A model generated the notes under the pieces. It saw only the letters and a program-made list of their open reading frames with translations, did not search any database and was not told the DNA's origin. Of a stretch of DNA of 64,000 nucleotides, positions 4,869-55,339 are shown in pieces. The position numbers were made by a program, and so were the translations under genes. The stretch's first letter is position 1. Every line of letters begins with the position of its first letter. The DNA is from Minisyncoccota bacterium. GTDB lineage: Bacteria; Patescibacteriota; Minisyncoccia; Phycocordibacterales; UBA9973. The stretch is taken from NCBI GenBank assembly GCA_041663185.1, contig JBAZQY010000001.1:19448-83447 (forward strand). The letters are read 5' to 3'.

Positions 4869-4886
4869 CCCCTTGTATTTAAATAT

Positions 4887-12025: not shown

Positions 12026-12538
12026 TTAATTTTCAGGTAATTCTTCTACCTCTTCAATTTCAACTTTTCCTTTTAATTCTTTTTGAAACGGAGAATAATA
12101 AGATTTTACATATATTTTCTTTTTATTTAAAATAAAGGGGAAATATTCTCTATCAGCTGGCATCATTTTATCAAAAGGTAAATTATTTATACTAAAAAAT
12201 GTCGGAGTAATCATCTCTTCTGTTTCTATTAATTCTCCAGTCCAATTTTCTAATAAAAAGAAGTGAACTCGACAAATATATGTACTGCCGTCACTTTTTT
12301 CATTATGAAAATCAACAACAGCTATTTTTTCTAAATCATCTATACTTGCAATCAATCCCGATTCTTCTTTTAGCTCTCTAATTACTGAGGTTTTGGGATT
12401 CTCTCCTTCTTCTATCCCCCCACCATATCCATTCCAACATCCCGCTCCAATCTTTCTAGTTTTTATAGCAAGAAGAACTTTATCTCCCTTTATCGGAAGA
12501 CAAACTGTTGCATTAAACAATATTTTTTCTGTTTCCAT
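12026..12538 (-). CDS. NUDIX hydrolase
   Basis: Nudix box GGGIEEGENPKTSVIRELKEESGL. Confidence 0.8.
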   Translation of the reverse strand: METEKILFNATVCLPIKGDKVLLAIKTRKIGAGCWNGYGGGIEEGENPKTSVIRELKEESGLIASIDDLEKIAVVDFHNEKSDGSTYICRVHFFLLENWTGELIETEEMITPTFFSINNLPFDKMMPADREYFPFILNKKKIYVKSYYSPFQKELKGKVEIEEVEELPEN

Positions 12539-29697: not shown

Positions 29698-29700
29698 AAA

Positions 29701-30183
29701 TTAAATATTTTTTCTTAATTCTGAAATTTTTAAATTAAAAATCTTCACGGGGTTGGAAAAATTATTTTTAAAATCTTCAATAAGCAAATCCCTTACTTCA
29801 AGTGGAAAAACCAACATATTATTTAATTCTTCTATTTTACACCATCTTGGTTCATAAAAATCTTCTCCTCTTAACATCTTTTGATATTCAGTGGTATCTT
29901 TTTTAAGTTCTGGAACACCAGAAACATAATCACAAAGATAGAAATACTGTTCTTTTCCATCATCGTAAATATGCCGATAGAGTAACTTATTTATTTTTGC
30001 TTCGATAGAAGATTCCTCTTGTAATTCTCTTAAAACTGCCTGTTTGATATCTTCATTTTCTTCTACCCCACCACCCGGAAAAACATAATATTCTTTGAAA
30101 TTTTTACGAAACATTAAAAGCACTTCGTCTTTTTTTACGAGAATCGCCCCCGCTCTAACTTCTGGCATATAAATTTCAGTCAT
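29701..30183 (-). CDS. NUDIX hydrolase
   Basis: Nudix box GGGVEENEDIKQAVLRELQEESSI. Confidence 0.8.
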   Translation of the reverse strand: MTEIYMPEVRAGAILVKKDEVLLMFRKNFKEYYVFPGGGVEENEDIKQAVLRELQEESSIEAKINKLLYRHIYDDGKEQYFYLCDYVSGVPELKKDTTEYQKMLRGEDFYEPRWCKIEELNNMLVFPLEVRDLLIEDFKNNFSNPVKIFNLKISELRKNI

Positions 30184-30195
30184 TTTTTATTATTT

Positions 30196-30513
30196 TTATT
30201 TACTTTTAACGATTTTTTTTCTTATAGCTTCGGCAAAAAGACGAAAAGCTGGTCTTTTTTCTGGATTGTAAACAGGATTGTAGATAATTTTTATTCCAAG
30301 TAAATGTTTGTCCGGGCAAAAAAGGTTTTTTGAGGAAATCGAAACCACTGGATTAAAAATTCGATCTATATATAGCCGGCGCAAATTATTTGGCCCATCT
30401 TTCTGGTAAAAGCAAATGTGTTTTTTACAATAATCACATGTGATATCCAACAAACGAGAATACCCTCCTCGTGCCTTCTTATATTTATCATCTTTAAAAA
30501 TTATTTTCTCCAT
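30196..30513 (-). CDS. Small hypothetical Cys-containing protein
   Basis: ORF only. CDYC...C...C spacing suggests a possible zinc-binding site. Confidence 0.4.
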   Translation of the reverse strand: MEKIIFKDDKYKKARGGYSRLLDITCDYCKKHICFYQKDGPNNLRRLYIDRIFNPVVSISSKNLFCPDKHLLGIKIIYNPVYNPEKRPAFRLFAEAIRKKIVKSK

Positions 30514-30522
30514 TTTATTCTT

Positions 30523-31086
30523 TTATAAAAATTCTTTTAATGTTGTCATTACTTCACCAACCGGCAAACCAATAATATTATTATGATCCCCCTCGATTTT
30601 TTCTATAAATGTGTCGATAATATCCGGCAAGGTATATGAGCCGGCATATTTTAAAGGATTGCCGGTTTTTATATAATTTTCTATCATTTCATCAGATAAT
30701 TCCTTGAAAGACACTTTTGTTTCAACAGATTTGGATACAATCAAATTATTTTGGGTATCAACAATCGTAAAACCAGTAAAAACTGAATGGGTTTTGCCAC
30801 TTAATTTTTTTAACGTCTCTCTTGCCTTGTCTGTTGTATGAGGCTTTCCAATAACGACCCCATCAATAGAGACAAAAGTGTCTGCAGAGAGGATGACTGC
30901 GTCCAAAAAGTTTTTCGCGACCGATTCTGCCTTCCCCCGCGACAAAAATTTTGCTAGTTCTTCTGGGCTTAAATCTAGGGTCATGTCTTCTTCATAATCA
31001 CTCGGAGAAATATCAAAAATCAGGCCTTGCTTTTCGAGCAATTCTTTTCTTCTTGGAGAACTTGAAGCTAGTATAATTTTTCTCAT
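30523..31086 (-). CDS. maf: Maf-like nucleoside triphosphate pyrophosphatase
   Basis: N-terminal ILASSSPRRKELL signature of the Maf family. Confidence 0.8.
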   Translation of the reverse strand: MRKIILASSSPRRKELLEKQGLIFDISPSDYEEDMTLDLSPEELAKFLSRGKAESVAKNFLDAVILSADTFVSIDGVVIGKPHTTDKARETLKKLSGKTHSVFTGFTIVDTQNNLIVSKSVETKVSFKELSDEMIENYIKTGNPLKYAGSYTLPDIIDTFIEKIEGDHNNIIGLPVGEVMTTLKEFL

Positions 31087-31123
31087 AAGTTTACTTTACT
31101 CAACTAAAGTGGAATAATTTTAA

Positions 31124-31573
31124 TTATTTTTTACTTTCCCAATTTTTTATTATCAATAATGCTTCTTGCTCTAATTCTTTATCGTGAAAAATTTCAATTT
31201 GTCTATTGTTTTTAGAATTGATTTCGGAAATATGATGTAATCCTTCATAATGCTGTTTATCTAGTTTATCTTTGGCAACAGCATAAACTATTTTTTTTAT
31301 TTTAGCCCAATAGCAAGCCGAGAAACACATTAAACATGGCTCCATAGAGGAATATATTTCACAATCAAATAAATCACGAGAATTCAGATTCTTTGAAGCA
31401 TTCCGAATCGCTTCAATTTCCGCATGACTTGTGGCATCTTTATTATTTTTACCATTACTTAAACCTTTCCCAACAATTTCCCCATTCTTAACAACAATTG
31501 CACCAACAGGAAAACCACCTTTATTTACAGACTCTTTTGATAGCTCTATTGCTTGTTTAAGAAAATCATTCAT
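31124..31573 (-). CDS. CDA-fold nucleoside deaminase (TadA/GuaD-like)
   Basis: Zinc motifs HAEIEAIRNA and PCLMCFSAC. Confidence 0.75.
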   Translation of the reverse strand: MNDFLKQAIELSKESVNKGGFPVGAIVVKNGEIVGKGLSNGKNNKDATSHAEIEAIRNASKNLNSRDLFDCEIYSSMEPCLMCFSACYWAKIKKIVYAVAKDKLDKQHYEGLHHISEINSKNNRQIEIFHDKELEQEALLIIKNWESKK

Positions 31574-40999: not shown

Positions 41000-43900
41000 T
41001 TATTTCTCAATAGTTATTTTAAAGACAATTTCTCCTGTTTTTATTTCTTCTCCGGTATTTCCCTTGAATTGTATTTCTTTTGCACTTACTGCTTTCATTA
41101 ATTCAGATTTAAATTTATTTATCAATTCTTGCCCTTCAGTATTTGTCTCAACAATAAGGGTAACAACATCACTAGGATTTAATCCATTATTTTTTCTGAT
41201 ATCTTGAATAGCTCGAACAAGTTCACGATACTGCCCTTCTTTCTTTAATTCCGGAGTTATATTTGTATCAAGTTCAACTTTTTGTTCGTCCCCCTTGATA
41301 AATTCAACTTCCTTAATATTTAACTCATCTTTAAGAATTTCCTGATAATCAATTGGTAATTGGTAATTGGTAATTAGTAATTTACTAAGTGGTTGCCTAA
41401 CGGGGATACCCTCTTTTTGCCTTGCTTGTAAACCAAGTGTAACAATATCACGAGCCTTTTGCATTTCTTCAATAATTTTTAATTCTTCATTGTTAATTCT
41501 TAATTCATTCTCAGGCCATTCTGCTAAATGCACACTCTCCTCATCTTTTTCATTTTTTAATTTCTGCCAAATATCCTCACTAGCAAATGGAGTAAACGGC
41601 GCCATTAATTTAATTAATGTTTTTAGAACATAGTAAAGAGTAATTTTTGCTTGTTCTTCTCCTTCTTTTATTCTGTCGCGTGAGCGACGTAGATACCAAG
41701 TTGAAAGATCATCAATAAAATCACGAATTGCTCGCACCGGTTCAAGAAGTTTGTAGTCATCTAATTTTTGTGTGCATTCATCGGTTAATTCCGTCAATCT
41801 TGCTATTATCCATTGATCTAAAATGTTATCTGATTTTTTGTATTCAATATTTTCTAACTCTATATCGCGATATAGTTCATAAAAAGCTAGCACGTTGTAA
41901 AGCAGATTAAATACCTTACTGTGAAGTTCCGCCACAGTCTTTTCATCAAAGTTTTTTGATTCCCCAGGTTGATTAACTGCATACATCCACAAGCGCAAAG
42001 TATCAACTCCATATTTGTCCATCATGGACCATGGGTCAACAATATTTCCGAGCGACTTACTCATCTTCTTCCCTTTTGCATCAAGTAAATGTCCTAAACA
42101 AATAACATTCTTGTACGCTTTACCTTTACCCATAATTGCTCCAACTGCATGAAGTGTATAGAACCATCCACGTGTCTGATCAATCGCTTCTGAAATAAAG
42201 TCGGCTGGGTACCCACCTCCTTTTTCAATTAAGTCTTTATTCTCAAAAGGATAATGATCTTGAGAGAATGGCATCGTTCCTGAATCAAGCCAAACATCCA
42301 TCACCTCCTTTACTCGAACAAGATTCCCCCCACAATCACAAGTAAGTTCTACTTCATCAATAAATGGTTTATGCAAATCAAGTTCATAATCTTCATTATG
42401 GGGGATAGCTACAAAATTATATTCTTCAAAATTTCCAAAATCTACAGGGTCCTCTTTCCAGTTTTTCCAAGCTGTCTTGACATCATCTCCATTAAGAATT
42501 GACGGTAACACTTCAAAAACTATCCCGTGAGCAACAAAAAGAATGTTTTCGCCTGAATACTTTGATTCCATCTCATAAATAAAATTAGCCACACGCTTTT
42601 TTGCTTCATAACATGATTCACCACCTTCCGGAGGAGTAAAAAAATCTTCGTGTTTCTTTCTCCATTCATTATAATCAGTTTTTGATTTACCATTATAAAT
42701 ACCGAAATTATATTCATGTAATCTTTCATCAGTAATTATTTGTTCCCTGGAAAAACCAATTACATCAGCAACAATTTTTGCTGTCTCTTGTGTTCGGATA
42801 AATGGGGATACAAATATTTTTGTAATTTTTTTATTTCGCAATTTCTCTGCCATTTCTTTTACATATTTTTTACCATTTTCAGTTAAATGATGAGGAAGAT
42901 TTGGATCACCCCCACTACAAACATTCAAAATGGTATGTTCCCCTTCTCCATGCCTCATTCCAAAATATTTATTCCCTGATCTTTTGGTTTTAGATTTTAA
43001 ATCTTCAACACTTCCAATAACTTCAACTTTATTGCATTTATCACAAGTCCAAACAGGAAGTGGGCTCCCCCAATAACGCTCACGAGAAATTGCCCAGTCT
43101 TTAATTTCTCTTAGCCATTCACCAAAACGTCCTTCTTTGATATAAGCTGGTTCCCAATTTATTCCTTCATTTTCTTTCACGAGTTTATCTCGCAACTGTG
43201 ACATCCTAATATACCAAGAGTCACGAGCATAATAGATAAGCGCCGTGTGACATCGCCAACAATGTGGGTATGAGTGCTCATATTTTTCTTTCTTAAATAA
43301 AAGTCCTCTATGAGCCAAATCTTTAATTATATCAACAGCGACTTCTTCATCGCGAACAAATCTAAAACTTAAATCTAAATCACCTTGTTTCATTTCAGAA
43401 TAAAAAGTTCCATTCAATCCCACTAAATGATGTTTAGGTAAATTTAATTTATTCCCTAAGGTGAAGTCATCCTGTCCGTACATTACAGCTGTATGCACAA
43501 CACCTGTACCATCTTCTGTGGTCACAAAATCAGCTGGGTATATTTTATAAGCATTAACCATTTTAGCTGATTCTGTTTGATTTTGTCTTATTTCATTTTC
43601 TAAAAAAGAATACAGCGGTTCATATTCAAGACCAATTAAATCTTTACCCTTAATATCATCGTACACAATTTCTATTTTTTGGTCTTCAAATACATTCTCA
43701 ACACGTGCACTAGCAAGAATATATAATTCAGAAACCCCATCAACTCGTAATGCTGTATAAGAAATATTTTCACCAACAGCTAAAGCTACATTGCCTGGTA
43801 GTGTCCACGGAGTTGTAGTCCAAGCTAGAATATATGCAGAATCTTTTGTTTCTTTATTGCCGCCATATTTTTGACCTGATTTCAATTTTAATTTCACATA

Positions 43901-44533
43901 CACCGACAAATCTTTTACATTTTCATATCCTTGGGCAAGTTCGTGCGAAGAAAGTCCTGTCCCGCAACGAGGACACCAAGGCACAACTTTATAATCTTTA
44001 TAAAGTAATTTTTGTTTGTCAGCTTCTTTGATAACATTCCAAACCGACTCAATATAATCATTATGATAAGTCACATAAGGATTTTCTTGATCAACCCAAA
44101 AACCAATTCGTTCGGTAAATTTATTCCAATATTCCAAATATTCCCAAACACTTTCTTTACATTGCTGGTTAAATTTTGCTATTCCATATTCCTCAATTGC
44201 TTTCTTTGAAGAGAGCCCGAGTTTCTTCTCAACTTGAAGTTCAACTGGTAAACCGTGCGTATCCCATCCACCTTTTCGGCGGACATGATAACCTCGCATA
44301 GTTTTGTATCGTGGAATAACATCCTTGAATGCTCTAGCTTCTAAATGATGTATCCCTGGTTTACCATTGGCAGTCGGTGGCCCTTCATAAAAAACATACT
44401 CACCCTTGGATGCATCTTTTTCTAAACTCTTTTTGAATATTTCCTGCTCTTTCCAAAACTGTAAAACTGCCTCCTCTCGTAAGGCAGATGCTGACTTTTT
44501 TGCTTCATTTTCATTTTCTGACATATTTCTCAT
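41000..44533 (-). CDS. ileS: Isoleucyl-tRNA synthetase with an in-frame insertion of a histidine-phosphatase (phosphoglycerate-mutase family) domain
   Basis: IleRS N-terminus (PPTANGKPGIHH, WDTHGLPVE), CP1 editing domain (TTPWTLPGN), KMSKSLGN. The insertion at about aa 515-718 (nt about 42380-42991) carries RHGE, SPFIRTQETA and VAHG. Confidence 0.9.
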   Translation of the reverse strand: MRNMSENENEAKKSASALREEAVLQFWKEQEIFKKSLEKDASKGEYVFYEGPPTANGKPGIHHLEARAFKDVIPRYKTMRGYHVRRKGGWDTHGLPVELQVEKKLGLSSKKAIEEYGIAKFNQQCKESVWEYLEYWNKFTERIGFWVDQENPYVTYHNDYIESVWNVIKEADKQKLLYKDYKVVPWCPRCGTGLSSHELAQGYENVKDLSVYVKLKLKSGQKYGGNKETKDSAYILAWTTTPWTLPGNVALAVGENISYTALRVDGVSELYILASARVENVFEDQKIEIVYDDIKGKDLIGLEYEPLYSFLENEIRQNQTESAKMVNAYKIYPADFVTTEDGTGVVHTAVMYGQDDFTLGNKLNLPKHHLVGLNGTFYSEMKQGDLDLSFRFVRDEEVAVDIIKDLAHRGLLFKKEKYEHSYPHCWRCHTALIYYARDSWYIRMSQLRDKLVKENEGINWEPAYIKEGRFGEWLREIKDWAISRERYWGSPLPVWTCDKCNKVEVIGSVEDLKSKTKRSGNKYFGMRHGEGEHTILNVCSGGDPNLPHHLTENGKKYVKEMAEKLRNKKITKIFVSPFIRTQETAKIVADVIGFSREQIITDERLHEYNFGIYNGKSKTDYNEWRKKHEDFFTPPEGGESCYEAKKRVANFIYEMESKYSGENILFVAHGIVFEVLPSILNGDDVKTAWKNWKEDPVDFGNFEEYNFVAIPHNEDYELDLHKPFIDEVELTCDCGGNLVRVKEVMDVWLDSGTMPFSQDHYPFENKDLIEKGGGYPADFISEAIDQTRGWFYTLHAVGAIMGKGKAYKNVICLGHLLDAKGKKMSKSLGNIVDPWSMMDKYGVDTLRLWMYAVNQPGESKNFDEKTVAELHSKVFNLLYNVLAFYELYRDIELENIEYKKSDNILDQWIIARLTELTDECTQKLDDYKLLEPVRAIRDFIDDLSTWYLRRSRDRIKEGEEQAKITLYYVLKTLIKLMAPFTPFASEDIWQKLKNEKDEESVHLAEWPENELRINNEELKIIEEMQKARDIVTLGLQARQKEGIPVRQPLSKLLITNYQLPIDYQEILKDELNIKEVEFIKGDEQKVELDTNITPELKKEGQYRELVRAIQDIRKNNGLNPSDVVTLIVETNTEGQELINKFKSELMKAVSAKEIQFKGNTGEEIKTGEIVFKITIEK

Positions 44534-44793: not shown

Positions 44794-45390
44794 TTAATAT
44801 ACCTCTTTTTGATAGCAACTTTCACAATAAATAATTTCCGGTCTTTCTGGTGCATACGATGTTTCAAATTCATTCGTGCAACCTTCATTCATACACTTCC
44901 TGTGCCAAAGCTTAGACGGACCCCTAAGTTTGAAACGCTTTTCCAATCTACAAAGAAAACAGCTTCTAGGGATTGGGATTTTCCATTTTCTATAAAAAGA
45001 AAGTTCATCCACTATTATTTTATAATTTCTTTTGCAAATATCACATTCCAAAACTTCTTCTATTATTGAATCTAGAATATCTTCAATATCGTCTGGGATT
45101 TCAAATAAAGTAGTTTTCCCTTCCGTCTTCTGTATATTATTTTGCCAAACAAGTCCTTTTTTGAGAATTTCTTCTTTACTTAAAGGAAAAGAGAGCATGG
45201 CCATTGATTCATTGTAAGCAAATGGGGATTTATCCATTGGGAAAAATTCTCCCCACTCACCTGTATTTTTCATATGCTCGATAATTTTTTCTTTTAATTT
45301 AAAATATTCTTCTTTACTATATTGTTTATTAAAAATCATGTACTTGGAGTGTTTCAGTCCAGCACAACCAAAACATTCCTGACAAGACAT
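44794..45390 (-). CDS. Cysteine-rich hypothetical protein (multi-CxxC), paralog of the upstream gene
   Basis: N-terminal CQECFGCAG... KYMIFNKQYSKEEY matches the C-terminus of 45424-46461. Its C-terminal CxxC pairs match that protein's N-terminus. Confidence 0.5.
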   Translation of the reverse strand: MSCQECFGCAGLKHSKYMIFNKQYSKEEYFKLKEKIIEHMKNTGEWGEFFPMDKSPFAYNESMAMLSFPLSKEEILKKGLVWQNNIQKTEGKTTLFEIPDDIEDILDSIIEEVLECDICKRNYKIIVDELSFYRKWKIPIPRSCFLCRLEKRFKLRGPSKLWHRKCMNEGCTNEFETSYAPERPEIIYCESCYQKEVY

Positions 45391-45423: not shown

Positions 45424-46461
45424 CTAGGAAGTCACAGTAAAAGAAGCTCGGTGGGAATGGTCAGGAGTCACACCTTCATAACACTGTTCTAACTCACCTC
45501 CAACAGACAAATCATAACTATTTTTTTGGACATCACCATTCTCAAGATATTTTGAATCTTCTGCTTTATGGGAATGAAAAACATATTTGGAATTTTTACT
45601 ATTAAACAAATTCTGTCCTTCACACTTAAAACAATTAATTTGATTTGCAAACTTATGCGGTTGTTTTAATAAAAATATATTAAATTCTTTCTTTGCTCTT
45701 TCTACTCCAGAATATGTGTCCAGCTTATATTCGTCAAGAATTTTTTCGTATTCTTTTTTTGTATATTGTTTATTTAGAATACAATATTTCTTTCCTTGAA
45801 GATTTGCGCACATAAAACAGTCTGTGCAACCTCGACATGAATAACAAAAACTACAATTAACTAAATTTGCAGATTGCTGAATATATTTTGATCCAAAACA
45901 CCTGTCACTATACATTACTTCATAAATACCCTCACTTTGATTAAATATTCCCATACAATCAACTCCATCTTTCATATTCCCTCCATATGAAAAATACATG
46001 CAGTTTTCCATTTTCCAGCAAACCATAGCCATATAACAATTTTTTCCATATGCAAAATCTTGAGTATATTCACAATTTACACTTCCTACATTGTTATCAT
46101 TGATTAAAGCTAGCGCTGGTACTTTTTGACGAAGTTCCGTAAATTGATCAAAAAAGGAGCGAGAAAAATCAAAATCCTGTCCATAACTTTTAGGATTCCA
46201 ATTGTCTCCCCACCAGCATTTATTACAATAAATTATTTGCGTTTTATCTGGAGAATAGATTGATATTATTTTTCTTTTACATAAATCACATTCACGATTA
46301 TAAAGAGAAAATTCATTCCTATATGCCAATCTTCTTTGGCTGCGACACTCAGGGCAAAAAGTCGGTGGAGGAACTTTAATTTTCTCATAAAATCCAAAAT
46401 CATCCAGCTCAATAGTAAAGTCATTTTTGCAGTTTTGGCATTGTTTTACTTCAGAATTCAT
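45424..46461 (-). CDS. Cysteine-rich hypothetical protein (four CxxC pairs plus a CxxCxxCxxCxxC cluster)
   Basis: CQNC, CPEC, CDLC, CNKC; NCSFCYSCRGCTDCFMCAN; KKYCILNKQYTKKEY. Confidence 0.5.
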   Translation of the reverse strand: MNSEVKQCQNCKNDFTIELDDFGFYEKIKVPPPTFCPECRSQRRLAYRNEFSLYNRECDLCKRKIISIYSPDKTQIIYCNKCWWGDNWNPKSYGQDFDFSRSFFDQFTELRQKVPALALINDNNVGSVNCEYTQDFAYGKNCYMAMVCWKMENCMYFSYGGNMKDGVDCMGIFNQSEGIYEVMYSDRCFGSKYIQQSANLVNCSFCYSCRGCTDCFMCANLQGKKYCILNKQYTKKEYEKILDEYKLDTYSGVERAKKEFNIFLLKQPHKFANQINCFKCEGQNLFNSKNSKYVFHSHKAEDSKYLENGDVQKNSYDLSVGGELEQCYEGVTPDHSHRASFTVTS

Positions 46462-46486: not shown

Positions 46487-46521
46487 ACAATCCCCCCAGA
46501 TAGGGCCTAAAGCCCTATCTG
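46487..46521. terminator. GC-rich perfect hairpin downstream of argS
   Basis: ccccccagatagggc-ctaaa-gccctatctgggggg, a 15-bp stem. No clean U-tract on the argS strand. Confidence 0.45.
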
Positions 46522-46574
46522 GGGGGATATTGATTTTTAATACCTATTTGTTACTTCTTACTTACTACTTTTTA

Positions 46575-48308
46575 TTACATTTTTTCTGGAGATTTTATTC
46601 CTAGGAGGTTCAAGCCATTTTTGATAACTATAGAAAATGCTTCGGTTATCGCTAGTTTATATGGTGATGTTAGATCATCTTTATCAACTATTTTTGTGTT
46701 GCCGTAGAAAGTATTGAAGGAACGGGCAAGATTTATCAGGTAATTTGCAATTTGTTGTGGAGCAAAATCTTCCGCACTCCTCATAACTATCTCAGGAAAA
46801 CGATTAAGCAATTTCTCTACTTCTGTCGTTCCCCAACCCTCTGGTACAGTAGTTTCTATTTTTATATTTTCATCTTTGGCTTTTTCTAAAATTGATTTAG
46901 CGCGAGCGTATGAATACTGCAAATATGGACCGGAATCACCATTTAAATTAATTATTTCTTCCCAATCAAAAATTATGTCTTTCTTGCTTTCTCGTTTTAG
47001 ATCATTAAACTTAATAGCCCCAATACCAACTTCTTCTGACACATCGCTATTAATAGTGCTTGCTCGACTGACAGCTTCATTTATAATATCATCAAGCCAT
47101 ATCACATTCCCTTTTCTGGTGCTCATCTTTCCATCTTTAAATCGGTACAATCCATGAGCTAAATGAATTCTCTGCTCTTTTGTAAAGTAACCAAGCATTT
47201 CTTCTGCTTCGAAAATTTGCTTAAAATACTCTGATTGCTCAGTTCCGACTTCATTTATAATTTTTATATCATCACCATACTCCTTCTTCCTCCATTTATC
47301 AGTAGTTAAATCGCGAAGAGCATACAAAGACGACCCGTCTTTTTTGGTAATCATCAATGGGTTTAATTTTGTTTCATCAGGGAAAAATATTAAAAATGCT
47401 CCTTCACTTTCTTTGCCGAGATTTTTATTTTTTATATCTTCTAGCACTTCACCCATTTTATTTTCATAAAAACTTTCTCCATTTATAGTATCAAAGTCAT
47501 TTATATCTAATCGTTCGTATATTCGATGAAATTCTTTCATCGAATACGAAATGCATTTCTGCCAAATGGCTACTGCTTCAGAATCTTTCTTTTCCAACCT
47601 AGAAAACCATTCTCGCCCTTCATCTTCAAGTTCTGGATTTTTCTCTGCTTCATCGTGAAATTTCACATATAAATCAACAAGCGTTTTAATGGGAGATGGG
47701 TCATTTTCGAGAGCATCTAAATTACCCCACTTTTTAATAGCGACAATCATTTTCCCGAATTGCGTGCCCCAGTCACCTAAATGATTATCTCGGATCACTT
47801 TGTAATCAGAAAACTCTAAAATTTTAGAAACTGAGTCACCAATAATTGTCGAGCGTAAATGGCCGATGGTAAATGGTTTAGCAATATTCGGAGATGAATA
47901 TTCGACAAGAATTTTTTTACCCTTACCAATTTTATTCTTTCCGAAATCTTCTTTTTCTTTTAAAATTTCTTTTATACTTTCAGCAAAAAATTCTCCTAAT
48001 AAATAAAAATTAATAAACCCAGGACCAGCAATCTCAACTTTTTTAATTTCTTTTGGTAAATTTTTTTCTAATTCATTTTTAATTTTTTCAGCAAGTTCTT
48101 TTAGATTAATTTTTAAACTTTTAGCACAAACCATTGCTACATTCGTCGAATAATCACCATTTTTATTATCATCTGGGTGCTCAACTGAAAAATCAACTTC
48201 ATTGATATCAAGATTTTTTAAAACTTTTTGTATTATTTTTTCTATTTCTTCTTTCATTTTATTTTTTCCCTGTACTTCCAAACATTCCTTCACCTCTAGA
48301 TGAATCAC
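46575..48308 (-). CDS. argS: Arginyl-tRNA synthetase
   Basis: Class I ArgRS HIGH-type region SSPNIAKPFTIGHLRSTIIGD, plus an anticodon-binding DALR-like C-terminus. Confidence 0.85.
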   Translation of the reverse strand: MIHLEVKECLEVQGKNKMKEEIEKIIQKVLKNLDINEVDFSVEHPDDNKNGDYSTNVAMVCAKSLKINLKELAEKIKNELEKNLPKEIKKVEIAGPGFINFYLLGEFFAESIKEILKEKEDFGKNKIGKGKKILVEYSSPNIAKPFTIGHLRSTIIGDSVSKILEFSDYKVIRDNHLGDWGTQFGKMIVAIKKWGNLDALENDPSPIKTLVDLYVKFHDEAEKNPELEDEGREWFSRLEKKDSEAVAIWQKCISYSMKEFHRIYERLDINDFDTINGESFYENKMGEVLEDIKNKNLGKESEGAFLIFFPDETKLNPLMITKKDGSSLYALRDLTTDKWRKKEYGDDIKIINEVGTEQSEYFKQIFEAEEMLGYFTKEQRIHLAHGLYRFKDGKMSTRKGNVIWLDDIINEAVSRASTINSDVSEEVGIGAIKFNDLKRESKKDIIFDWEEIINLNGDSGPYLQYSYARAKSILEKAKDENIKIETTVPEGWGTTEVEKLLNRFPEIVMRSAEDFAPQQIANYLINLARSFNTFYGNTKIVDKDDLTSPYKLAITEAFSIVIKNGLNLLGIKSPEKM

Positions 48309-48681
48309 TCAATGTATCAGTTTCTTCTAATTCTCCGATAACTACTGGATAAATAATCAGTTGACTAACTTTGTCTCCCTCTTCTATAGTATAAGGCTTA
48401 TCTGACAAATTCACTAGATGAGTGTTATATTCTCCACGATACCCCGCATCAAAAACACCGCCCATTTGGTGAAGACCCTCTTTTGAAATACTAGACTTAT
48501 CTTTTACAATTGCCGCATATCCAGTTGGAAACTCCATGGCAAATCCATGCCAAAAGCGATAGTGCCCCATCGTTGGAATAGTAACTGTTTCCATTGAATA
48601 TAAATCCATACCGACATCTCCTGGATGTGCATAGCTTGGAAGTTTAGCATTTTCTTTTAATTTTTTAATTTTGATTTTCAT
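48259..48681 (-). CDS. dut: dUTP diphosphatase
   Basis: dUTPase motifs GDVGMDLY, GVFDAGYRGE, C-terminal RGEGMFGSTG. Overlaps the argS 5' end by 50 bp. Confidence 0.85.
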   Translation of the reverse strand: MKIKIKKLKENAKLPSYAHPGDVGMDLYSMETVTIPTMGHYRFWHGFAMEFPTGYAAIVKDKSSISKEGLHQMGGVFDAGYRGEYNTHLVNLSDKPYTIEEGDKVSQLIIYPVVIGELEETDTLSDSSRGEGMFGSTGKK

Positions 48682-48689
48682 AATTATTA

Positions 48690-49511
48690 TTATTCTTTTA
48701 ACATTACATTTAATGTCGCAATGTTTTTTTGTCCGGGTTTAATTATTGTTGGGTTTTTAATAATTCCATCTATATCTTCCATGAACACTTCAATACAAAT
48801 ATAATCTTTGTCTTTCTGAGACCAAAAAACAAATTTTTTATATTCTTTTGAGGCCGTAAACATAAACGTTCCCAGCCCTGGAATATATACTTCGATTGGC
48901 TTATTGGGGTTATCAATGAAAACGGCTTCTCCTTCTGCCCATTTGTCAATTTGATTTGCAACAATTTCTCCTCCCTTAAAATTAAATTTAATATTTTTCT
49001 TTTCCTCTGATGGGACTTTAAAATACGGATGTAAGCCACTTGAAATTGGCATTACTTTATCTTTCTCTAAATTTTTAACACGCTGAATAATAGAAAAAGA
49101 ATTATTCTGATTTAGAAAAACATCCATCATAAGTTCAAAATTATAAGGGTAGACTTCTTTGGTTTTTTGGTTTGAGGTTAATACTTCATGGAAACTAGCA
49201 TCGGTTACTCGGGTGTTCCATTTTTCATTTCTAGCAAAACCATGCTGTTTGAGATTCTGTAAATTTCCACGATCCAATCCTTCGGAGATTAGTCCAGCAT
49301 TAGGGAAAAGAATGGGGATGCCTCCTTTAACATTCACTTCGGGGTTTTTCAGTGTTGCTTCATCGAGATATAAAATTTCTTTCCCTTTTAATTTAATAGA
49401 TGTAACAATCCCCCCGCGTTCCGAGCAAAAAGAAAGCTCACTCCCCATAGGTCCTTCTATTGTCTCAACTTTTAATTCATTATTATTTTGTTTTTGCTCA
49501 AATTGGCTCAT
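48690..49511 (-). CDS. Aldose 1-epimerase family protein (hexose-6-phosphate mutarotase-like)
   Basis: GGIPILFPN and HGFAR motifs. Confidence 0.7.
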   Translation of the reverse strand: MSQFEQKQNNNELKVETIEGPMGSELSFCSERGGIVTSIKLKGKEILYLDEATLKNPEVNVKGGIPILFPNAGLISEGLDRGNLQNLKQHGFARNEKWNTRVTDASFHEVLTSNQKTKEVYPYNFELMMDVFLNQNNSFSIIQRVKNLEKDKVMPISSGLHPYFKVPSEEKKNIKFNFKGGEIVANQIDKWAEGEAVFIDNPNKPIEVYIPGLGTFMFTASKEYKKFVFWSQKDKDYICIEVFMEDIDGIIKNPTIIKPGQKNIATLNVMLKE

Positions 49512-49512
49512 T

Positions 49513-50226
49513 TTATTTTACAATTTTTTTAACTTCTTTATAAACCATTTCGTGAACTTGCTCACGAGATAATATTTCTCCTTTTTTGGAGCATTCTATT
49601 TTTATAAAATTCGGAATTTCTTTTTCTAATTTCAGCGCGCTCTTTCTGGAATTAATTAAATGATTGATATCACTTTCGTGAACATCTTTTTTCTTTTTCA
49701 AATATTCCCTTTTCATTTTACTACTGTCCCTATTCTTTAAAAGCTTGAGAACAATATTGATCGGCAAACTCAAATACAGAGTTAGGTCAGGTCTTGGAAT
49801 TCCAAAAACTTCATATTCCATTTCATCAAGCCATTTTAGAAAATCATTCCTTTTTTTAGTATTTTTCGTCTTCCCCCCTTGGTGAATTTGATTAGCCGAG
49901 ACATATCTGTTGGCAATGACAATATAGCCCTTTTTAAGCCATTTCCTCATCTCGTCGCTAGATTCCCACCTATCTGCCGCATACATCACAGAGGCGATTT
50001 TAGGGTGTATATTGAGCCAATTATAGTACTGTTCGCTCAAACAATGCCCGATAAACTTGCCAAAGAAGTTCTTGTAATATTCCGGGAAATCAACAACTTT
50101 TACAATTTTTCCATCCTTCTTTAAATGCTTAGTTAAATAATCCACCTGCGTCGCCTTTCCGCTTCCATCTGTGCCGTCTATAACTATAAGTTTGCCTTTG
50201 TATTTTTCTTTTTTATTTTTTGTCAT
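49513..50226 (-). CDS. tmk: Thymidylate kinase family protein (Tmk-like) with C-terminal extension
   Basis: P-loop LIVIDGTDGSGKATQ, DRW motif. Sits within the dTMP cluster. Confidence 0.65.
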   Translation of the reverse strand: MTKNKKEKYKGKLIVIDGTDGSGKATQVDYLTKHLKKDGKIVKVVDFPEYYKNFFGKFIGHCLSEQYYNWLNIHPKIASVMYAADRWESSDEMRKWLKKGYIVIANRYVSANQIHQGGKTKNTKKRNDFLKWLDEMEYEVFGIPRPDLTLYLSLPINIVLKLLKNRDSSKMKREYLKKKKDVHESDINHLINSRKSALKLEKEIPNFIKIECSKKGEILSREQVHEMVYKEVKKIVK

Positions 50227-50653
50227 AATAATTTTTTCCTGATTTATACGAATCGACTAGAACGGCAGTAGGATAGAAAAGTGGTGATGGTAAATTATTG
50301 ATATCGAGCCATTGCCAATCCCCAATGTTCTCATTGATAAATGTTTGTGGTTCGCCCTTATCCCAATTTGCTGTTACTCCAATTAAAACTTTATTATATA
50401 TATCAATATTTGCAACACAGGAAAATTTTATATCTTTTATCTTGATTCCAGCTTCTTCAAAAGTTTCCCTTTTTATTGCTTCCTCAAAAGATTCCCCAAA
50501 TTCCATATGCCCACCAGGGAAAGAATACTCACTCTTTCCATGGGAAGCCGTCTCCTTTCTCTTACCAATTAAAACTTTCCCTTCTTTAAATATCATTGCT
50601 CCAACAACTGCGATCGGTCTTTTTTTAGATTCATTTTTAATTTCGGAATTCAT
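50213..50653 (-). CDS. NUDIX hydrolase
   Basis: Nudix box GGHMEFGESFEEAIKRETFEEAGI. Confidence 0.8.
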   Translation of the reverse strand: MNSEIKNESKKRPIAVVGAMIFKEGKVLIGKRKETASHGKSEYSFPGGHMEFGESFEEAIKRETFEEAGIKIKDIKFSCVANIDIYNKVLIGVTANWDKGEPQTFINENIGDWQWLDINNLPSPLFYPTAVLVDSYKSGKNYYDKK

Positions 50654-50655
50654 GA

Positions 50656-51066
50656 TTATTTATCAAAAAATTCCTTAATAATAACTGGTAATTCATCAAT
50701 ATTTTTATAAACTTTTTTGATTAAGTTATAATCTCCATTGATCATCCCTGATATCGGTTTTGGAGAACCTTCTCTATAAAGACATAAGACTTTTTTATTA
50801 AGCGCTTCAGCTATTCCAATTTCATAACCAACCCCAACACTAGGAGTAGAAATATCTGCAACTAAAACATCTGCCGATCTGAGCCATTCTATATCTCTTT
50901 TATAAATATATTCATGAGATTTATCTTCACCTTGGCTAGATAATGTTTTATCTCCAATATGTTCCGTTAGAACTTCCCCATAATTTTTTAGCAACTCAAT
51001 AATCTTCTCATAAATATGAGCATCATCTCTTCCCCCTCTTATTGACCCTGCAAAATATATTTTCAT
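50656..51066 (-). CDS. Nucleoside 2-deoxyribosyltransferase-fold protein, DNPH1/Rcl-like 2'-deoxynucleoside 5'-phosphate N-hydrolase
   Basis: N-terminal MKIYFAGSIRGGRDD...VLTEH, matching the Rcl/DNPH1 signature. Confidence 0.65.
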   Translation of the reverse strand: MKIYFAGSIRGGRDDAHIYEKIIELLKNYGEVLTEHIGDKTLSSQGEDKSHEYIYKRDIEWLRSADVLVADISTPSVGVGYEIGIAEALNKKVLCLYREGSPKPISGMINGDYNLIKKVYKNIDELPVIIKEFFDK

Positions 51067-51070
51067 AAAA

Positions 51071-51502
51071 TTATTTTATAATTCCTGCATCTTTAAGCAT
51101 TTGTTTATGATCGTAAGCTAAATCCATTTTGGAAACTTCTTCAGGAGTAAACCAACCGATATCTTGAACTTCAGAAATTTGATTGACCTTTGGTTCACCT
51201 GAAACTATTTTACAAATATGAGGCAGGGCAATACTTGTTTTTGTTGGATGCCTTCCTTTGGGATCATAATATTTTCCAATAAATTTTATAACTTCTATTT
51301 CAACTCCGACTTCTTCTTGCGCTTCTCTTTTCAGTGCTTCTTCAACTGTTTCATCCCATTCCATCCAACCCCCAACCAATCCCCAATAATCTGGGAATGC
51401 TCTCATGCTAGTAGACCTCTTTTGCAAAAAAATTTTACCATCATTATTTACAATAATGGCATCTACTCCTACCCATGGATGATCCTTTTTTTCTTCAGAC
51501 AT
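51071..51502 (-). CDS. NUDIX hydrolase
   Basis: Nudix box GGWMEWDETVEEALKREAQEEVGV. Confidence 0.8.
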   Translation of the reverse strand: MSEEKKDHPWVGVDAIIVNNDGKIFLQKRSTSMRAFPDYWGLVGGWMEWDETVEEALKREAQEEVGVEIEVIKFIGKYYDPKGRHPTKTSIALPHICKIVSGEPKVNQISEVQDIGWFTPEEVSKMDLAYDHKQMLKDAGIIK

Positions 51503-51506
51503 AAAT

Positions 51507-52679
51507 TTATTTTCTTAAAATTTTATTAATTGTTTGTGCTATTTTTATCATATCTTTCTCTTTTTTTCCGTGAGTTGTCTCAGCGCATGTCCCTAAGCGA
51601 ATCCCTGACGGATCCATTGGGCCTCTCGTATCACCTGGAATTGTATTCATGTTTACAATAATCCCATTTTTTTCCAATCTTTCTCCTGCTTCTTTACCAG
51701 ATATTCCTTTTCCGTCCATCCAAGTATCAACCAAAATCAAATGTGAGTCTGTCCCCCCAGAAATAATGTGCCAGCCGAGCTTTTGTAATTCCTTTGCCAA
51801 GGCCTTGGCATTTTTCACAACTTGTTTTGCATATTTTTTAAAATCGGGTCTCATTGCCTCAGAAAGTGCGACAGCGACCGCGGCAATAGTATTCTCATGC
51901 GGGCCACCAAAGAGCCCTGGTATAACCATTTTGTCTAATTTTTTATCAAAATTTCTTTCATCTTTTTTTACAAACAAAAGTGCGTGCCTTGGGCCACGAA
52001 GTGATTTGTGTGTAGTTGTCATGACTGAATCAGCATAAGGAAAAGGTGAAGGATACGCACCGCCTGCGACAAGACCTGCGAAGTGAGACATATCGACATG
52101 TAGAATTGCCCCACAGCTATCGGCAATTTCTCGAAACTTTTTAAAATCAACAATTCGTGGATAAGCGGTGAAACCAGCAACAATAATGTCTGGCTTTTCT
52201 GCGATAGCTAATTTTTTTAATTCTTGATAATTTATTATTTCGGTTTTTGCATCAAGTTCAAATTGAACTCCCTTCCAAAGCTTGCCGGTCATCGAAGCAG
52301 GATAACCGTGAGTAAGGTGCCCACCGGCTGAAAGCTTCATTCCCATTATCTTGCTACCAAGTGGAACAAGAGCAGAATACAAAGCAAAGTTTGCTGGACT
52401 ACCAGAGAGAAGCTGAGCGTTCACGTGCCAGTTTTCTTTTTTTAATTTAAAAAGTTTTAAGGCTCTCTCTATGCAAAGATTCTCTACCTTATCAACGATT
52501 TCATTACCACCATAGTACCTACGGCCAGGGTATCCTTCAGCGTATTTGTTGGTAAGTTTTGAGCCAAGCGCTTTCAATACATCACCTGAGACATAGTTTT
52601 CGGAAGCAATCAGATTTATAACGCTTTTTTGCCTTTTTTCTTCGTCTTTTATGAGTTTTTCTACTTGTTTATCGTGCAT
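51507..52679 (-). CDS. glyA: Serine hydroxymethyltransferase (short form)
   Basis: SHMT motifs HLTHGYPAS and PLP-lysine region TTTHKSLRGPR. Confidence 0.9.
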   Translation of the reverse strand: MHDKQVEKLIKDEEKRQKSVINLIASENYVSGDVLKALGSKLTNKYAEGYPGRRYYGGNEIVDKVENLCIERALKLFKLKKENWHVNAQLLSGSPANFALYSALVPLGSKIMGMKLSAGGHLTHGYPASMTGKLWKGVQFELDAKTEIINYQELKKLAIAEKPDIIVAGFTAYPRIVDFKKFREIADSCGAILHVDMSHFAGLVAGGAYPSPFPYADSVMTTTHKSLRGPRHALLFVKKDERNFDKKLDKMVIPGLFGGPHENTIAAVAVALSEAMRPDFKKYAKQVVKNAKALAKELQKLGWHIISGGTDSHLILVDTWMDGKGISGKEAGERLEKNGIIVNMNTIPGDTRGPMDPSGIRLGTCAETTHGKKEKDMIKIAQTINKILRK

Positions 52680-52757
52680 GTGATTTTTAAGTTTTTAAGA
52701 TTAATATACTGATTTTAGCATGTTTGTATCAAAAATAGAAAGCTGTATAATAGGTCT

Positions 52758-53699
52758 ATGGATAAATATCATGTCGACAATATATATTTAGATTTAGTGG
52801 AAAGAATAAAAAAAGAAGGAACACAAAAAGGAGACAGAACAGGAACAGGGACTATCTCAATTTTTGGACACCAGATGAGATTTGATTTATCCAAAGGCTT
52901 TCCTCTTTTAACAACAAAGAAGGTGCCAATAAAAGCAATAATCCATGAATTGCTTTGGTTCATGCGTGGTGATACAAATCTAAAATATCTTGCAGAAAAT
53001 AATGTTCATATCTGGGATGAATGGCCATTTAAAGCATACTTAATGAAATCCGGTAAACCAATGCCAAAAGTTGGCAGTGAAGAATGGAACTCTGGGTTAA
53101 AAGAGTTTATTGAAAAAATAAAAACAGATGAAAGTTTTGCAAAAGAATATGGAGAACTTGGTCCAATATATGGTTCACAGTGGAGATGCTGGAAAGACCA
53201 AGATAATACTTGTCTTGACCAACTAAATGATGCGATAGAAATGATTAAAACAAATCCTGATTCACGTCGAATTATTGTTTCTGCTTGGAACGTCGCTGAT
53301 ATTAATGAAATGACAAAAGCAGGACTTCCTCCTTGTCATTTACTTTTCCAATTCTATGTTGCTAATGGAAAATTATCATGTCAGCTCTACCAAAGAAGTT
53401 GTGATACTTTCTTGGGCGTACCATTTAATATTGCTTCTTATGCATTATTAGTAATGATAATTGCTCAAGTAACTGGATTACAACCAGGAGAATTTGTTTG
53501 GACGGGTGGAGACGTTCATTTATACTCCAATCACCTTGAACAAGTGGAAACACAATTATCTCGTCGAAATGATTTACGACCGATGCCCGAAATGAAGATA
53601 AATAAAGAAATAAAAAATATTGAAGATTTTACAATTAATGATTTCGAGTTGGTAAATTATAATCCTCATGACGCCATCAAGGCACCTATCGCCGTATAA
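52758..53699 (+). CDS. thyA: Thymidylate synthase (ThyA type)
   Basis: Active site [34 protein letters not shown]. Confidence 0.9.
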
Positions 53700-53703
53700 A
53701 TTT

Positions 53704-54201
53704 ATGATTCTATCTATAATTTCAGCCATTGGGAAAAATAATGAAATTGGAAAGGCAAATACATTGCTATGGAATTTACCCGCTGACATGAAGCATTTCA
53801 AAGAAACAACTTCCGGCCATACCATCATAATGGGACAGAAAACTTTTGAATCCATTGGACGAGCACTCCCCAATCGTCGAAATATCGTTCTGACAAAAGA
53901 TGAGGATTTTAGAAGAGATGGGATAGAAATCGTTTATTCAATTGATGAATTGATGGAATTACTAGAAAAAACAACTTCACAAGATGATGAATGTTTTATT
54001 ATCGGGGGTGGACAAATATATAAACTATTTATTGATAGAGCAGACAAATTATACATTACTCACGTAGATGAAGAATTCCCCAGTGCTGATACATTTTTCC
54101 CTGAGATTGATATGAATAAATGGAAAAAGATTCAAGAAGAATCACATAACGCCGATGAAAATAATAAATACGATTTGAAATTTGCAATATATAAAAAGTA
54201 A
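53704..54201 (+). CDS. folA: Dihydrofolate reductase
   Basis: MILSIISAIGKNNEIG...LPADMKHFKETT...IMGQKTFESIG. The start is taken at the internal Met; the ORF track's 53668 start would overlap thyA. Confidence 0.85.
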   Translation: MILSIISAIGKNNEIGKANTLLWNLPADMKHFKETTSGHTIIMGQKTFESIGRALPNRRNIVLTKDEDFRRDGIEIVYSIDELMELLEKTTSQDDECFIIGGGQIYKLFIDRADKLYITHVDEEFPSADTFFPEIDMNKWKKIQEESHNADENNKYDLKFAIYKK

Positions 54202-54244
54202 AACAAATAAAAAACACGATATTAAAATTTTAATATTGTGTTTT

Positions 54245-54802
54245 TTATTTGTTTGTGAGTTTGGTAATTATTTCATCTATTTGCTTATATAGATCTTCTT
54301 TTGATTCTTCATTTATAATAAAGAAATCTGCTCTTGCTATTGGACCTGCTTGATGAATATTTTCTATCTGTGCATAATCTCGAGAGATAACATCTTCTCG
54401 AGACAATGGACGGATTGGACGATTTTCCATTCTCTTTATTCTTGTCTCGGGAGAAGATAAAACCGATAATACTTTGAAATCATCGCCAAAAGCTTTTTCC
54501 ATTTCAAGATATTCTTCCCAACTATAAAGGCTTTCTACGAGAACACTTGTTGTTGTAATTAAATCTTTTATTTTAGGAATACTCAAAATAGCATAACAGC
54601 CCATACCATATTCACTTCTAATCCTCTCTCTTGTGATTCTTTCATTAGCTTCATTTATTTCTAAACCAACCTTTTTCATTTCATCAAAAGTAACGTCACC
54701 AAAATAAACCTTGGGCCAACCAGTCTTATTCATTAAATATTCTATTATTTCTGTTTTCCCTGCTCCTGGTAATCCAACCACTGCTAAAATTATTTTATTC
54801 AT
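54245..54802 (-). CDS. P-loop nucleoside/nucleotide kinase-like protein (dNMP-kinase-like)
   Basis: Walker A VGLPGAGKT. Small-kinase architecture, embedded in the dNTP cluster. Confidence 0.5.
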   Translation of the reverse strand: MNKIILAVVGLPGAGKTEIIEYLMNKTGWPKVYFGDVTFDEMKKVGLEINEANERITRERIRSEYGMGCYAILSIPKIKDLITTTSVLVESLYSWEEYLEMEKAFGDDFKVLSVLSSPETRIKRMENRPIRPLSREDVISRDYAQIENIHQAGPIARADFFIINEESKEDLYKQIDEIITKLTNK

Positions 54803-54814
54803 ATAATTTTTAAA

Positions 54815-55339
54815 TTAAAATTTTGGGATATTATCTCCCCATATTTCTTCTAAATAACTCTTCCCATTTATATTACGACAATCAACATCTGGCATTGATT
54901 GCAATAACCTAGTAATCGCTTCATTTGTCACATCATTTGTCATTGATTTCGCATTATTGTTCACCTTACTTTCTACAACAGAATTCTTATAAATAATTCT
55001 TTTTATGCCTGCTTGAATAATATGTTTTAAACAATTTTCACAAGGCCCATAAAGATTATAAAGAGTGCATTTTTCTAAATCTCTTTTTGCAAACAAAATA
55101 GCGTTCATTTCTCCGTGAAGAACCAAGTGATATTTAATTGGTCTTTCTGTGGACATTATTGACTCATCACACCCACTAATAAAACCATTGTAACCAAAAG
55201 AAATTGGTCGATTTTTGCTATCGACAATGACACACCCTGTTTTGGTAGAAGGATCTTTTGATTTTTTAGCTACTTGCTCAGCAATATTAATAAAATATTC
55301 ATCCCAAGACAACCCTTTTAAATTTTTGTTTTCTTCCAT
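54815..55339 (-). CDS. dCMP deaminase (ComEB-like)
   Basis: HGEMNAI and PCENC zinc motifs of the dCMP deaminase family. Confidence 0.8.
   Translation of the reverse strand: MEENKNLKGLSWDEYFINIAEQVAKKSKDPSTKTGCVIVDSKNRPISFGYNGFISGCDESIMSTERPIKYHLVLHGEMNAILFAKRDLEKCTLYNLYGPCENCLKHIIQAGIKRIIYKNSVVESKVNNNAKSMTNDVTNEAITRLLQSMPDVDCRNINGKSYLEEIWGDNIPKF

Follow-up and report, generated by a model that had tools for sequence, protein, structure and literature searches.

A block of 11 tightly packed genes occupies positions 48259-55339 of the window, a 64,000-nucleotide stretch of contig JBAZQY010000001.1 (GenBank assembly GCA_041663185.1) whose source lineage is Candidatus Paceibacterota (Patescibacteria). 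There is almost no spacer DNA in the block, and 10 of the 11 genes belong to deoxynucleotide or one-carbon metabolism: dut, a tmk-like gene, two NUDIX hydrolase genes, an ortholog of DNPH1, glyA, thyA, folA, a gene for a P-loop protein with the nucleoside monophosphate (NMP) kinase fold, and a deoxycytidine monophosphate (dCMP) deaminase gene, here called dcd. The eleventh encodes an aldose-1-epimerase-family protein. The locus is probably (with a probability of about 0.7) a housekeeping cluster that supplies thymidylate and controls the quality of the pyrimidine pool. Every component is a member of a known enzyme family already annotated by standard pipelines, and this is not a new system.

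Coordinates and profile matches are collected in Table 1. Pfam and NCBIfam searches found every gene that the sequence-only reading of this DNA had named at the claimed place and on the claimed strand. That reading also claimed a complete thymidylate cycle, and ThyA, FolA and GlyA are indeed all present. The GlyA match to NF000586 is full-length (residues 3-389), and in the alignment ThyA carries the canonical PPCH motif, which contains the catalytic cysteine, and the PFNIASY motif. For folA, the most likely start is the ATG at 53704 (165 amino acids; 4 nucleotides past the thyA stop) and not 53668. The folA ortholog in the closest relative found (locus L083) was also called at 165 amino acids.

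Table 1. Genes and candidate signals of the thymidylate block and of the adjoining argS, in window coordinates.
Feature	Position	Strand	Evidence
hairpin 3' of argS (probable terminator)	46490..46528	.	17-bp GC-rich palindrome, 17 pairs, 11 of them G-C; inside the 113-bp gap past the argS stop at 46575
argS (arginyl-tRNA synthetase)	46575..48257	-	Pfam tRNA-synt_1d, DALR_1, Arg_tRNA_synt_N; end of the leftward unit; start corrected here
dut (dUTP diphosphatase)	48259..48681	-	PF00692 87 bits; TIGR00576 111.7 bits (above cutoff 102.55)
aldose-1-epimerase-family gene (Slr1438/hexose-6-phosphate-mutarotase type)	48690..49511	-	PF01263 70.9 bits
Tmk-like dTMP kinase	49513..50226	-	PF02223 71.2 bits (above cutoff 27)
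NUDIX-B	50213..50653	-	PF00293 57 bits; Nudix box GHMEFGESFEEAIKRETFEEAG
DNPH1 ortholog (predicted 2'-deoxynucleoside 5'-phosphate N-hydrolase)	50656..51066	-	PF05014 69.2 bits (above cutoff 28.8)
NUDIX-A	51071..51502	-	PF00293 88 bits; Nudix box present
glyA (serine hydroxymethyltransferase)	51507..52679	-	PF00464 507 bits; NF000586 501 bits (cutoff 335); first gene of the leftward unit
putative divergent glyA/thyA promoter region	52680..52757	.	78 bp
thyA (thymidylate synthase, long form)	52758..53699	+	TIGR03284 454 bits (cutoff 108); PF00303 397 bits
folA (dihydrofolate reductase)	53704..54201	+	PF00186 204 bits, match from residue 15 of the long open reading frame
convergent folA/P-loop hairpin (probable bidirectional terminator)	54203..54252	.	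perfect 23-bp AT-rich stem, A-run and U-run flanks
NMP-kinase-fold P-loop protein (UPF0200/AdkA-like)	54245..54802	-	AAA_18, AAA_17
dCMP deaminase (DCTD/ComEB type)	54815..55339	-	PF00383 74.7 bits; HGE...PCENC zinc motif

By every sequence criterion the DNPH1-like protein is a DNPH1 ortholog, and its N-glycosidase activity is predicted. Human and rat DNPH1 structures match residues 3-112 with an E-value of 1.6e-32 (several of these PDB entries are titled '5-hydroxymethyl-dUMP N-hydrolase', dUMP being deoxyuridine monophosphate), and identity to human DNPH1 is about 50%. The functional positions of the human enzyme (PMC10603095) were carried onto the HMMER alignment with human DNPH1, and conservation was taken from 20 Patescibacterial homologs. 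All ten are kept in the window protein (Y24 as Y4, I29 as I9, R30 as R10, E55 as E35, H56 as H36, I76 as I54, D80 as D58, S98 as S76, E104 as E82 and S128' as S106). Eight of them are invariant in the 20 homologs; of the other two, R10 is almost so and I54 shows conservative changes. The catalytic triad Tyr24/Asp80/Glu104 (Y4/D58/E82) is among the invariant positions, and the loss of the catalytic Glu or Asp that the sequence-only reading had named as fatal to its assignment is not seen. The 5'-phosphate-binding residues S76 and S106 are also invariant and the loop G7-S-I-R-G-G-R13 is present; this phosphate-binding set (Ser98, Ser128' and the GSIRGGR loop) discriminates DNPH1 from nucleoside 2-deoxyribosyltransferases. 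T34-E35-H36, the equivalent of the helical element with Glu55 and His56 that serves in water activation and leaving-group stabilisation (PMC10603095), is invariant in the homologs as well. The usual annotation label of DNPH1, 'nucleoside 2-deoxyribosyltransferase', is a mislabel. By analogy with the human enzyme, the preferred substrate is most likely 5-hydroxymethyl-dUMP or a similar 5-substituted dUMP; human DNPH1 contacts the hydroxymethyl moiety by way of an amide of its backbone, and sequence likeness to it cannot confirm the use of 5-hydroxymethyl-dUMP. A tblastn search of 50,697 phage records gave no match to a DNPH1 homolog, and a phage origin of the gene was dropped on these grounds.

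The block contains two genes with a Nudix box, not the 'triple NUDIX' first counted, and the box GX5EX7REUXEEXGU is intact in both. Two further NUDIX genes of the window lie outside it (12026-12538 and 29701-30183). NUDIX-A weakly resembles NudI, NudG and MutT, with sub-cutoff matches of 51.7, 48.6 and 48.1 bits. NudI and NudG are pyrimidine (d)NTP pyrophosphohydrolases, that is, they act on (deoxy)nucleoside triphosphates. The best PDB matches of NUDIX-B are Arabidopsis NUDX1 (E-value 1.8e-19) and human NUDT15 (about 1e-14). Plant NUDX1 and human NUDT15 are dNTP sanitisers. The PDB neighbours of NUDIX-A likewise suggest a MutT/NudI/NudG-like protein. None of the substrate-specific equivalog models in NCBIfam reaches its cutoff for either protein, and the PDB neighbours are leads only. 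At least a dozen relatives' loci have NUDIX genes between glyA and dut, and these are not orthologous between genomes.

The best PDB match of the deaminase is human deoxycytidylate deaminase (DCTD; 2W4L, E-value 5.4e-23). Its neighbour, the P-loop protein, matches the uncharacterised Sulfolobus SSO1041 with an E-value of 5e-11. The AlphaFold 2 model of this protein has a pLDDT (predicted local distance difference test) of 91.1, and a Foldseek search with the model placed 3LW7 (SSO1041, 'AdkA-like', with adenosine monophosphate) first (E-value 6.7e-12, template modelling score 0.75-0.81), followed by AK1, AK5 and UMP/CMP kinases. Both the P-loop and the modelled three-dimensional fold are thus those of NMP kinases. 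Across more than 100 Paceibacterota clusters the protein is 66-86% identical, always about 183 amino acids long and always stand-alone. In all four loci examined by way of P-loop homologs (L168-L171; P-loop protein identity 70-77%) dcd is followed within a few nucleotides by the P-loop gene, both convergent on folA-thyA. We conclude, on the strength of the model and this context, that the P-loop protein is probably an NMP-type kinase tied functionally to the deaminase and ThyA. In some relatives the P-loop gene lies beside ribosomal-protein genes.

Together these enzymes could work as follows. The deaminase, acting on dCMP, and Dut, acting on dUTP, would supply dUMP. ThyA would convert dUMP to deoxythymidine monophosphate (dTMP), with FolA and GlyA regenerating methylene-tetrahydrofolate, and Tmk would send dTMP towards dTTP. 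At the Tmk gate, the DNPH1 ortholog would destroy unwanted deoxynucleoside monophosphates (dNMPs), with release of the base and of deoxyribose 5-phosphate. Dut and both NUDIX hydrolases would perform the equivalent clean-up at the triphosphate level, and the P-loop protein may be a nucleoside-monophosphate kinase working alongside the deaminase. The sanitation role of the clean-up genes is a prediction from family membership. The layout would fit an organism that, as is typical of Patescibacteria, presumably scavenges its nucleotides and whose dNMP pool may then hold foreign modified bases.

As the sequence-only reading held, the co-localisation extends past the usual thyA-folA pairing. It is also more than chance, since homologs of DNPH1 have these genes as neighbours in many further genomes. 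Eighty loci around DNPH1 homologs were collected from GTDB species-representative genomes, and the window proteins were mapped onto them by tblastn, which may overlook Tmk or Dut genes that have diverged in remote phyla. Of the 80 loci, 21 carry a tmk-like gene, 21 a dut, 18 a glyA and 16 an argS, almost invariably arranged as glyA..dnph1..tmk..dut-argS; these synteny counts were made without correction for shared ancestry. The order glyA..dnph1..tmk..dut-argS is kept in about 20 loci, usually with a long ileS next, and thyA-folA is divergently upstream in about 10 of these. Most of the order-keeping loci are labelled Paceibacterota, Nomurabacteria or Parcubacteria; some labels are doubtful, one is Woesearchaeota, and the taxonomic labels of several metagenome-assembled genomes (MAGs) are unreliable. 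Forty-four of the loci have 5 kb or more of sequence to either side of DNPH1, and 16 of these 44 have at least two thymidylate genes less than 5 kb away from it. Gene order near DNPH1 varies between loci (tmk-dnph1, dnph1-tmk, tmk-dut-dnph1) and the partners stay together.

Several observations weigh against reading the block as one functional cluster. The Tmk-like protein narrowly misses the cutoff of TIGR00041 (79.6 bits against 83.25), although all 37 of its PDB matches are thymidylate kinases. No thymidylate gene is found nearby in 27 of the 44 well-flanked DNPH1 loci, mainly of Bacteroidota, Desulfobacterota, Acidobacteriota and some other candidate phyla (mostly outside Patescibacteria), and the coupling is therefore real but lineage-restricted. 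The modules adjoin in some genomes only; in L168 and L169 a DEAD helicase is found in the place of glyA. In addition, argS and ileS share the conserved order and are unrelated to nucleotides, and part of the order conservation may be plain synteny inertia. Taken further, the argS-ileS linkage and the many DNPH1 homologs outside the lineage without thymidylate neighbours would suit a purely historical adjacency, in which independent genes are together through a small genome and inherited order. This is very unlikely, as 10 of 11 consecutive genes belong to one pathway area, the partners of DNPH1 remain constant when the order differs, and dcd-P-loop and thyA-folA remain joined where the glyA module is elsewhere. 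The genes entering and leaving the block are also mostly nucleotide enzymes, and the replaced cassette of L083 (see below) again has a DNPH1 gene.

The 'supercluster' proposed by the sequence-only reading is therefore neither a chance adjacency nor scattered in close relatives, but it is not a single fixed unit. Two conserved modules make it up, glyA..dnph1..tmk..dut-argS and the even more stable dcd-P-loop convergent on thyA-folA, joined in only some genomes and interspersed with fast-changing slots. Among the recurrent slot occupants scanned are three more NUDIX families, two more families of P-loop kinases, a dCTP deaminase, a dCMP-deaminase-like protein, tandem ThyX and CYTH. An SDR dehydrogenase was the lone non-nucleotide exception among them, and a MazG-like protein was also found in a slot. 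The clearest case of turnover comes from L083, which is about 83% identical to the window in nucleotide sequence along the backbone. Here the glyA-tmk segment (50215-51513 in the window, 2735-3871 in L083) is unalignable save for the first 41 nucleotides of dnph1. In place of nudA-dnph1-nudB, L083 has a cassette of a 52% identical dnph1' and a gene for a 197-amino-acid protein, for which a search gave spurious ubiquitin matches only. L083 has in addition a NUDIX gene before dut and a 361-amino-acid gene before argS. Because a DNPH1 gene is present in both versions of the cassette and outlasts the swap, this argues for selection for the presence of DNPH1 at this position.

Other loci differ in their own ways. 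L037 (862-10402), which bears the DPANN archaeal label Candidatus Woesearchaeota, has a DNPH1 homolog with dut, glyA and a tandem pair of tmk-like genes less than 10 kb away; the link may reach into further lineages with reduced genomes, or the MAG may be mislabelled. A divergent ThyA-family gene adjoins folA in three loci (L025 at 7299-8147, L007 at about 4783-5568 and L020 at about 6825-7643, all on the minus strand). Its protein is 28% identical to the window ThyA, lacks an insert of about 40 amino acids, has Asp for the Asn of PFNIASY (PFD or PAD), and has PCP instead of PPCH. In the ThyA family this Asn-to-Asp change is the one linked to cytosine rather than uracil specificity. The best PDB matches of the divergent proteins are still ordinary thymidylate synthases. 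In the same three loci an atypical deaminase lies between the ThyA-like gene and glyA, and in L025 and L007 a MazG-like gene is found where the window has dcd-P-loop.

The aldose-1-epimerase-family gene, which the sequence-only reading had left unexplained, is present, and its position can now be accounted for as that of a lineage-specific occupant of the slot between tmk and dut. The PF01263 match spans residues 29-170 only. The closest solved structures are Slr1438 (3K25, E-value 5.8e-26) and yeast hexose-6-phosphate mutarotase (2CIQ, 2.7e-8). Eighteen homologs all keep the motifs HGFAR, HPYF and C-x-E, which align to Slr1438 and may correspond to the His/His/Glu active-site motifs of the superfamily. 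The family is common in Paceibacterota, but only 5 of 43 homolog loci have the gene between tmk and dut (at least 41% identity). In a neighbour-joining tree these five and the window protein form one clade, which also holds a member found among Mur ligase genes; other homologs adjoin ManC, ManA, GH130 genes or DUF1361. In other genomes the tmk-dut slot holds a NUDIX gene or a kinase instead, and the epimerase is absent from all 80 DNPH1-anchored loci. The placement fits a single old insertion and not a conserved pathway role, and the gene was most likely carried along in a variable slot and has no part in the pathway.

The epimerase bears on another explanation of the block, namely bulk catabolism, in which DNPH1 turns surplus scavenged dNMPs into bases and deoxyribose 5-phosphate as a source of carbon and energy and the epimerase acts on the sugar phosphate. 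The protein does belong to the HGFAR-motif group that includes hexose-6-phosphate mutarotase, and within one clade it has stayed between tmk and dut while diverging to about 50% identity. The confinement to the one clade, however, speaks for one insertion and not for repeated recruitment, and elsewhere the family lies among cell-wall or sugar genes (Mur ligases, mannose and GH130 genes). No deoxyribose-phosphate aldolase was seen in the block. PMC10483697 describes canonical dNMPs as accepted by the DNPH1 family, but as slow substrates, and such turnover is slow in the characterised DNPH1 enzymes. Bulk catabolism thus appears unlikely, and an epimerase acting on the deoxyribose 5-phosphate released by DNPH1 was demoted to a minor rival on the 0/80 and 5/43 counts.

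An anti-phage function was considered for the deaminase and its partner. The PADLOC dCTP-deaminase model PDLC02373 matches the deaminase with an E-value of 1.4e-21 and the P-loop protein with 2e-11 (model positions 153-333). NF041025, 'anti-phage dCTP deaminase', matches them as well, with 56.5 and 29.2 bits, far under its cutoff of 400. In this family the kinase-like domain is N-terminal and the deaminase domain C-terminal, and both halves are homologous to the window proteins; in the window there are two genes, deaminase first, which are strictly conserved and have housekeeping genes as partners. The defence candidate PDC-S07 is matched by both NUDIX proteins, and slots turn over fast between close relatives. 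The pair could on these grounds be a split kinase-deaminase dCTP deaminase, with DNPH1 and the variable NUDIX proteins depleting or destroying phage nucleotides, including those with modified bases. This is highly improbable. The strict conservation of the P-loop protein and its place near thyA-folA are housekeeping behaviour, whereas a defence gene would be patchily distributed. The nearest relative of the deaminase is human DCTD, and the P-loop model is closest to archaeal AdkA-like, adenylate or UMP/CMP kinases. DNPH1 homologs are absent from the phage records searched, and the block is free of mobile-element marks. A defence system was rejected on the sub-cutoff scores, the split and reversed genes, the conserved housekeeping context and the ordinary-kinase structural relatives. 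Given scores well short of the cutoff, a split and reversed gene pair and a distribution typical of core genes, the two proteins are treated here as putative housekeeping relatives of the fused anti-phage enzyme, and the pair may resemble its unfused forms.

The probable housekeeping cluster appears from its gene anatomy to comprise three transcription units. The first, leftward on the minus strand, is glyA-nudA-dnph1-nudB-tmk-epimerase-dut-argS, with junctions from -14 (overlap) to +8 nucleotides. The second, on the plus strand and divergent from glyA, is thyA-folA. The third, on the minus strand, runs from an HlyD-like gene through an ABC ATPase, a MacB permease and a CAAX protease to dcd and the P-loop gene, and this tail converges on folA. 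The 50-bp overlap of dut with argS in the sequence-only reading was not upheld. It goes back to an in-frame GTG at 48308, and the Arg_tRNA_synt_N domain begins only at residue 21 of that long open reading frame. The argS start is the ATG at 48257, 1 nucleotide past the dut stop (...GGG AAA AAA TAA A ATG AAA GAA...), and the overlap is therefore an artefact of open reading frame calling. Among relatives, the argS match starts 2-10 nucleotides after dut in about half of the loci (e.g. L003, L004, L012, L025, L092) and further downstream in the rest.

Candidate signals are found at the ends of these units. The hairpin past argS is the probable terminator of the glyA-to-argS unit. In the intergenic region between glyA and thyA, the minus strand has a promoter-like TTGATA-18-TATATT (52732-52703) 5' of glyA, and the plus strand has an extended -10-like element TGTATAAT (52740-52760) that ends about 5 nucleotides before the thyA ATG. 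The region is nearly identical in L083, where the TGTATAAT element is kept. The position of this element suggests that the thyA-folA mRNA may be leaderless or nearly so. The hairpin between folA and the P-loop gene has a minimum free energy of -23.5 kcal/mol (z-score -8.0 against shuffles), and its 3' arm reaches a few nucleotides into the end of the P-loop gene; it is probably a bidirectional terminator. A regulatory RNA within the block was dropped after an Rfam scan gave no match inside it, the only RNAs of the window being three tRNAs, all elsewhere. No DNA-modification genes were found among about 45 window open reading frames scanned with Pfam, which included all those lying up to about 8 kb upstream and about 5 kb downstream of the block.

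Elsewhere in the window, the isoleucyl-tRNA synthetase gene (41000-44533, minus strand; 1177 amino acids) encodes a His_Phos_1 domain (residues 526-690, E-value 1.4e-29) inside the split catalytic domain. Similarly long genes (1139-1172 amino acids) are found downstream of argS in many relatives, and the insertion may be conserved in the lineage. Between ileS and argS there are two genes for Cys-rich proteins (44794-45390 and 45424-46461, minus strand; 198 and 345 amino acids) with many CxxC pairs and no Pfam match; in relatives this interval is filled by different genes. About 17 kb from the block, at 28825-31573 on the minus strand, a second 'house-cleaning' run contains genes for a TatD DNase, a NUDIX hydrolase, a 105-amino-acid protein, Maf and a CDA-family deaminase. 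Maf is a nucleotide pyrophosphatase family. Near the start of the window, a tRNA gene (4887-4969) and the beginning of a large serine recombinase gene (4941-6455) overlap, with homologs of VirD4/TraG-like coupling proteins at 6834-8153 and 8801-10975 and a ParB-like gene at 3707-4741. The segment 3707-10975 is possibly an integrated mobile element.

Among known arrangements, the widespread bacterial thyA-folA pair or operon comes closest to the block. As in that pair, folA follows thyA in the same orientation at a distance of 4 nucleotides, and the two enzymes are coupled via dihydrofolate. In comparison the window adds a divergent glyA, a convergent dCMP deaminase and NMP-kinase-like gene, and the tmk, dut, two NUDIX genes and DNPH1 of the glyA operon, which brings the whole thymidylate cycle and the pool-cleaning enzymes within 7 kb. 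T-even phages have a nucleotide set of their own with td, frd, cd, the gene 1 dNMP kinase and the gene 56 dCTPase/dUTPase. Thymidylate synthase, dihydrofolate reductase, dCMP deaminase, dNMP kinase and a dUTP/dCTP pyrophosphatase are brought together in both; the window locus differs in being cellular, in lacking a hydroxymethylase and in containing glyA and DNPH1.

According to PMC10603095 and PMC10483697, the human DCTD-DNPH1 axis handles 5-hydroxymethyl-deoxyuridine nucleotides, DNPH1 being a 5-hydroxymethyl-dUMP N-hydrolase. The window has close relatives of both proteins (E-values of 1.6e-32 for DNPH1 and 5.4e-23 for DCTD). It differs in being bacterial and in having these genes clustered with tmk, dut and thyA, and the axis is here a prediction from sequence. 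A full-text literature search found no description of a bacterial DNPH1 in a thymidylate operon, and nothing relevant on bacterial or Patescibacterial DNPH1. To our knowledge, DNPH1 has been studied almost only as a human cancer target. A speculative and rather unlikely idea makes the locus an operon for 'thymine fidelity', in which the prokaryotic equivalent of the human DCTD-DNPH1 axis is firmly tied to thyA, tmk and dut. With such an operon, a DNA-scavenging bacterium of reduced genome would bar uracil, 5-hydroxymethyluracil and other modified pyrimidines (e.g. from phage or host DNA) from its own genome. The slots with their quickly exchanged NUDIX, kinase, deaminase and MazG genes would then serve as an adaptive toolkit, possibly driven by phages, for dealing with different modified nucleotides.

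The genomic context is strong evidence of an old link of DNPH1 to the dUMP/dTMP/Tmk node outside animals. With its fixed backbone and fast-changing slots, the cluster is a natural catalogue of candidate dNMP- and dNTP-sanitising enzymes in nucleotide-scavenging organisms.

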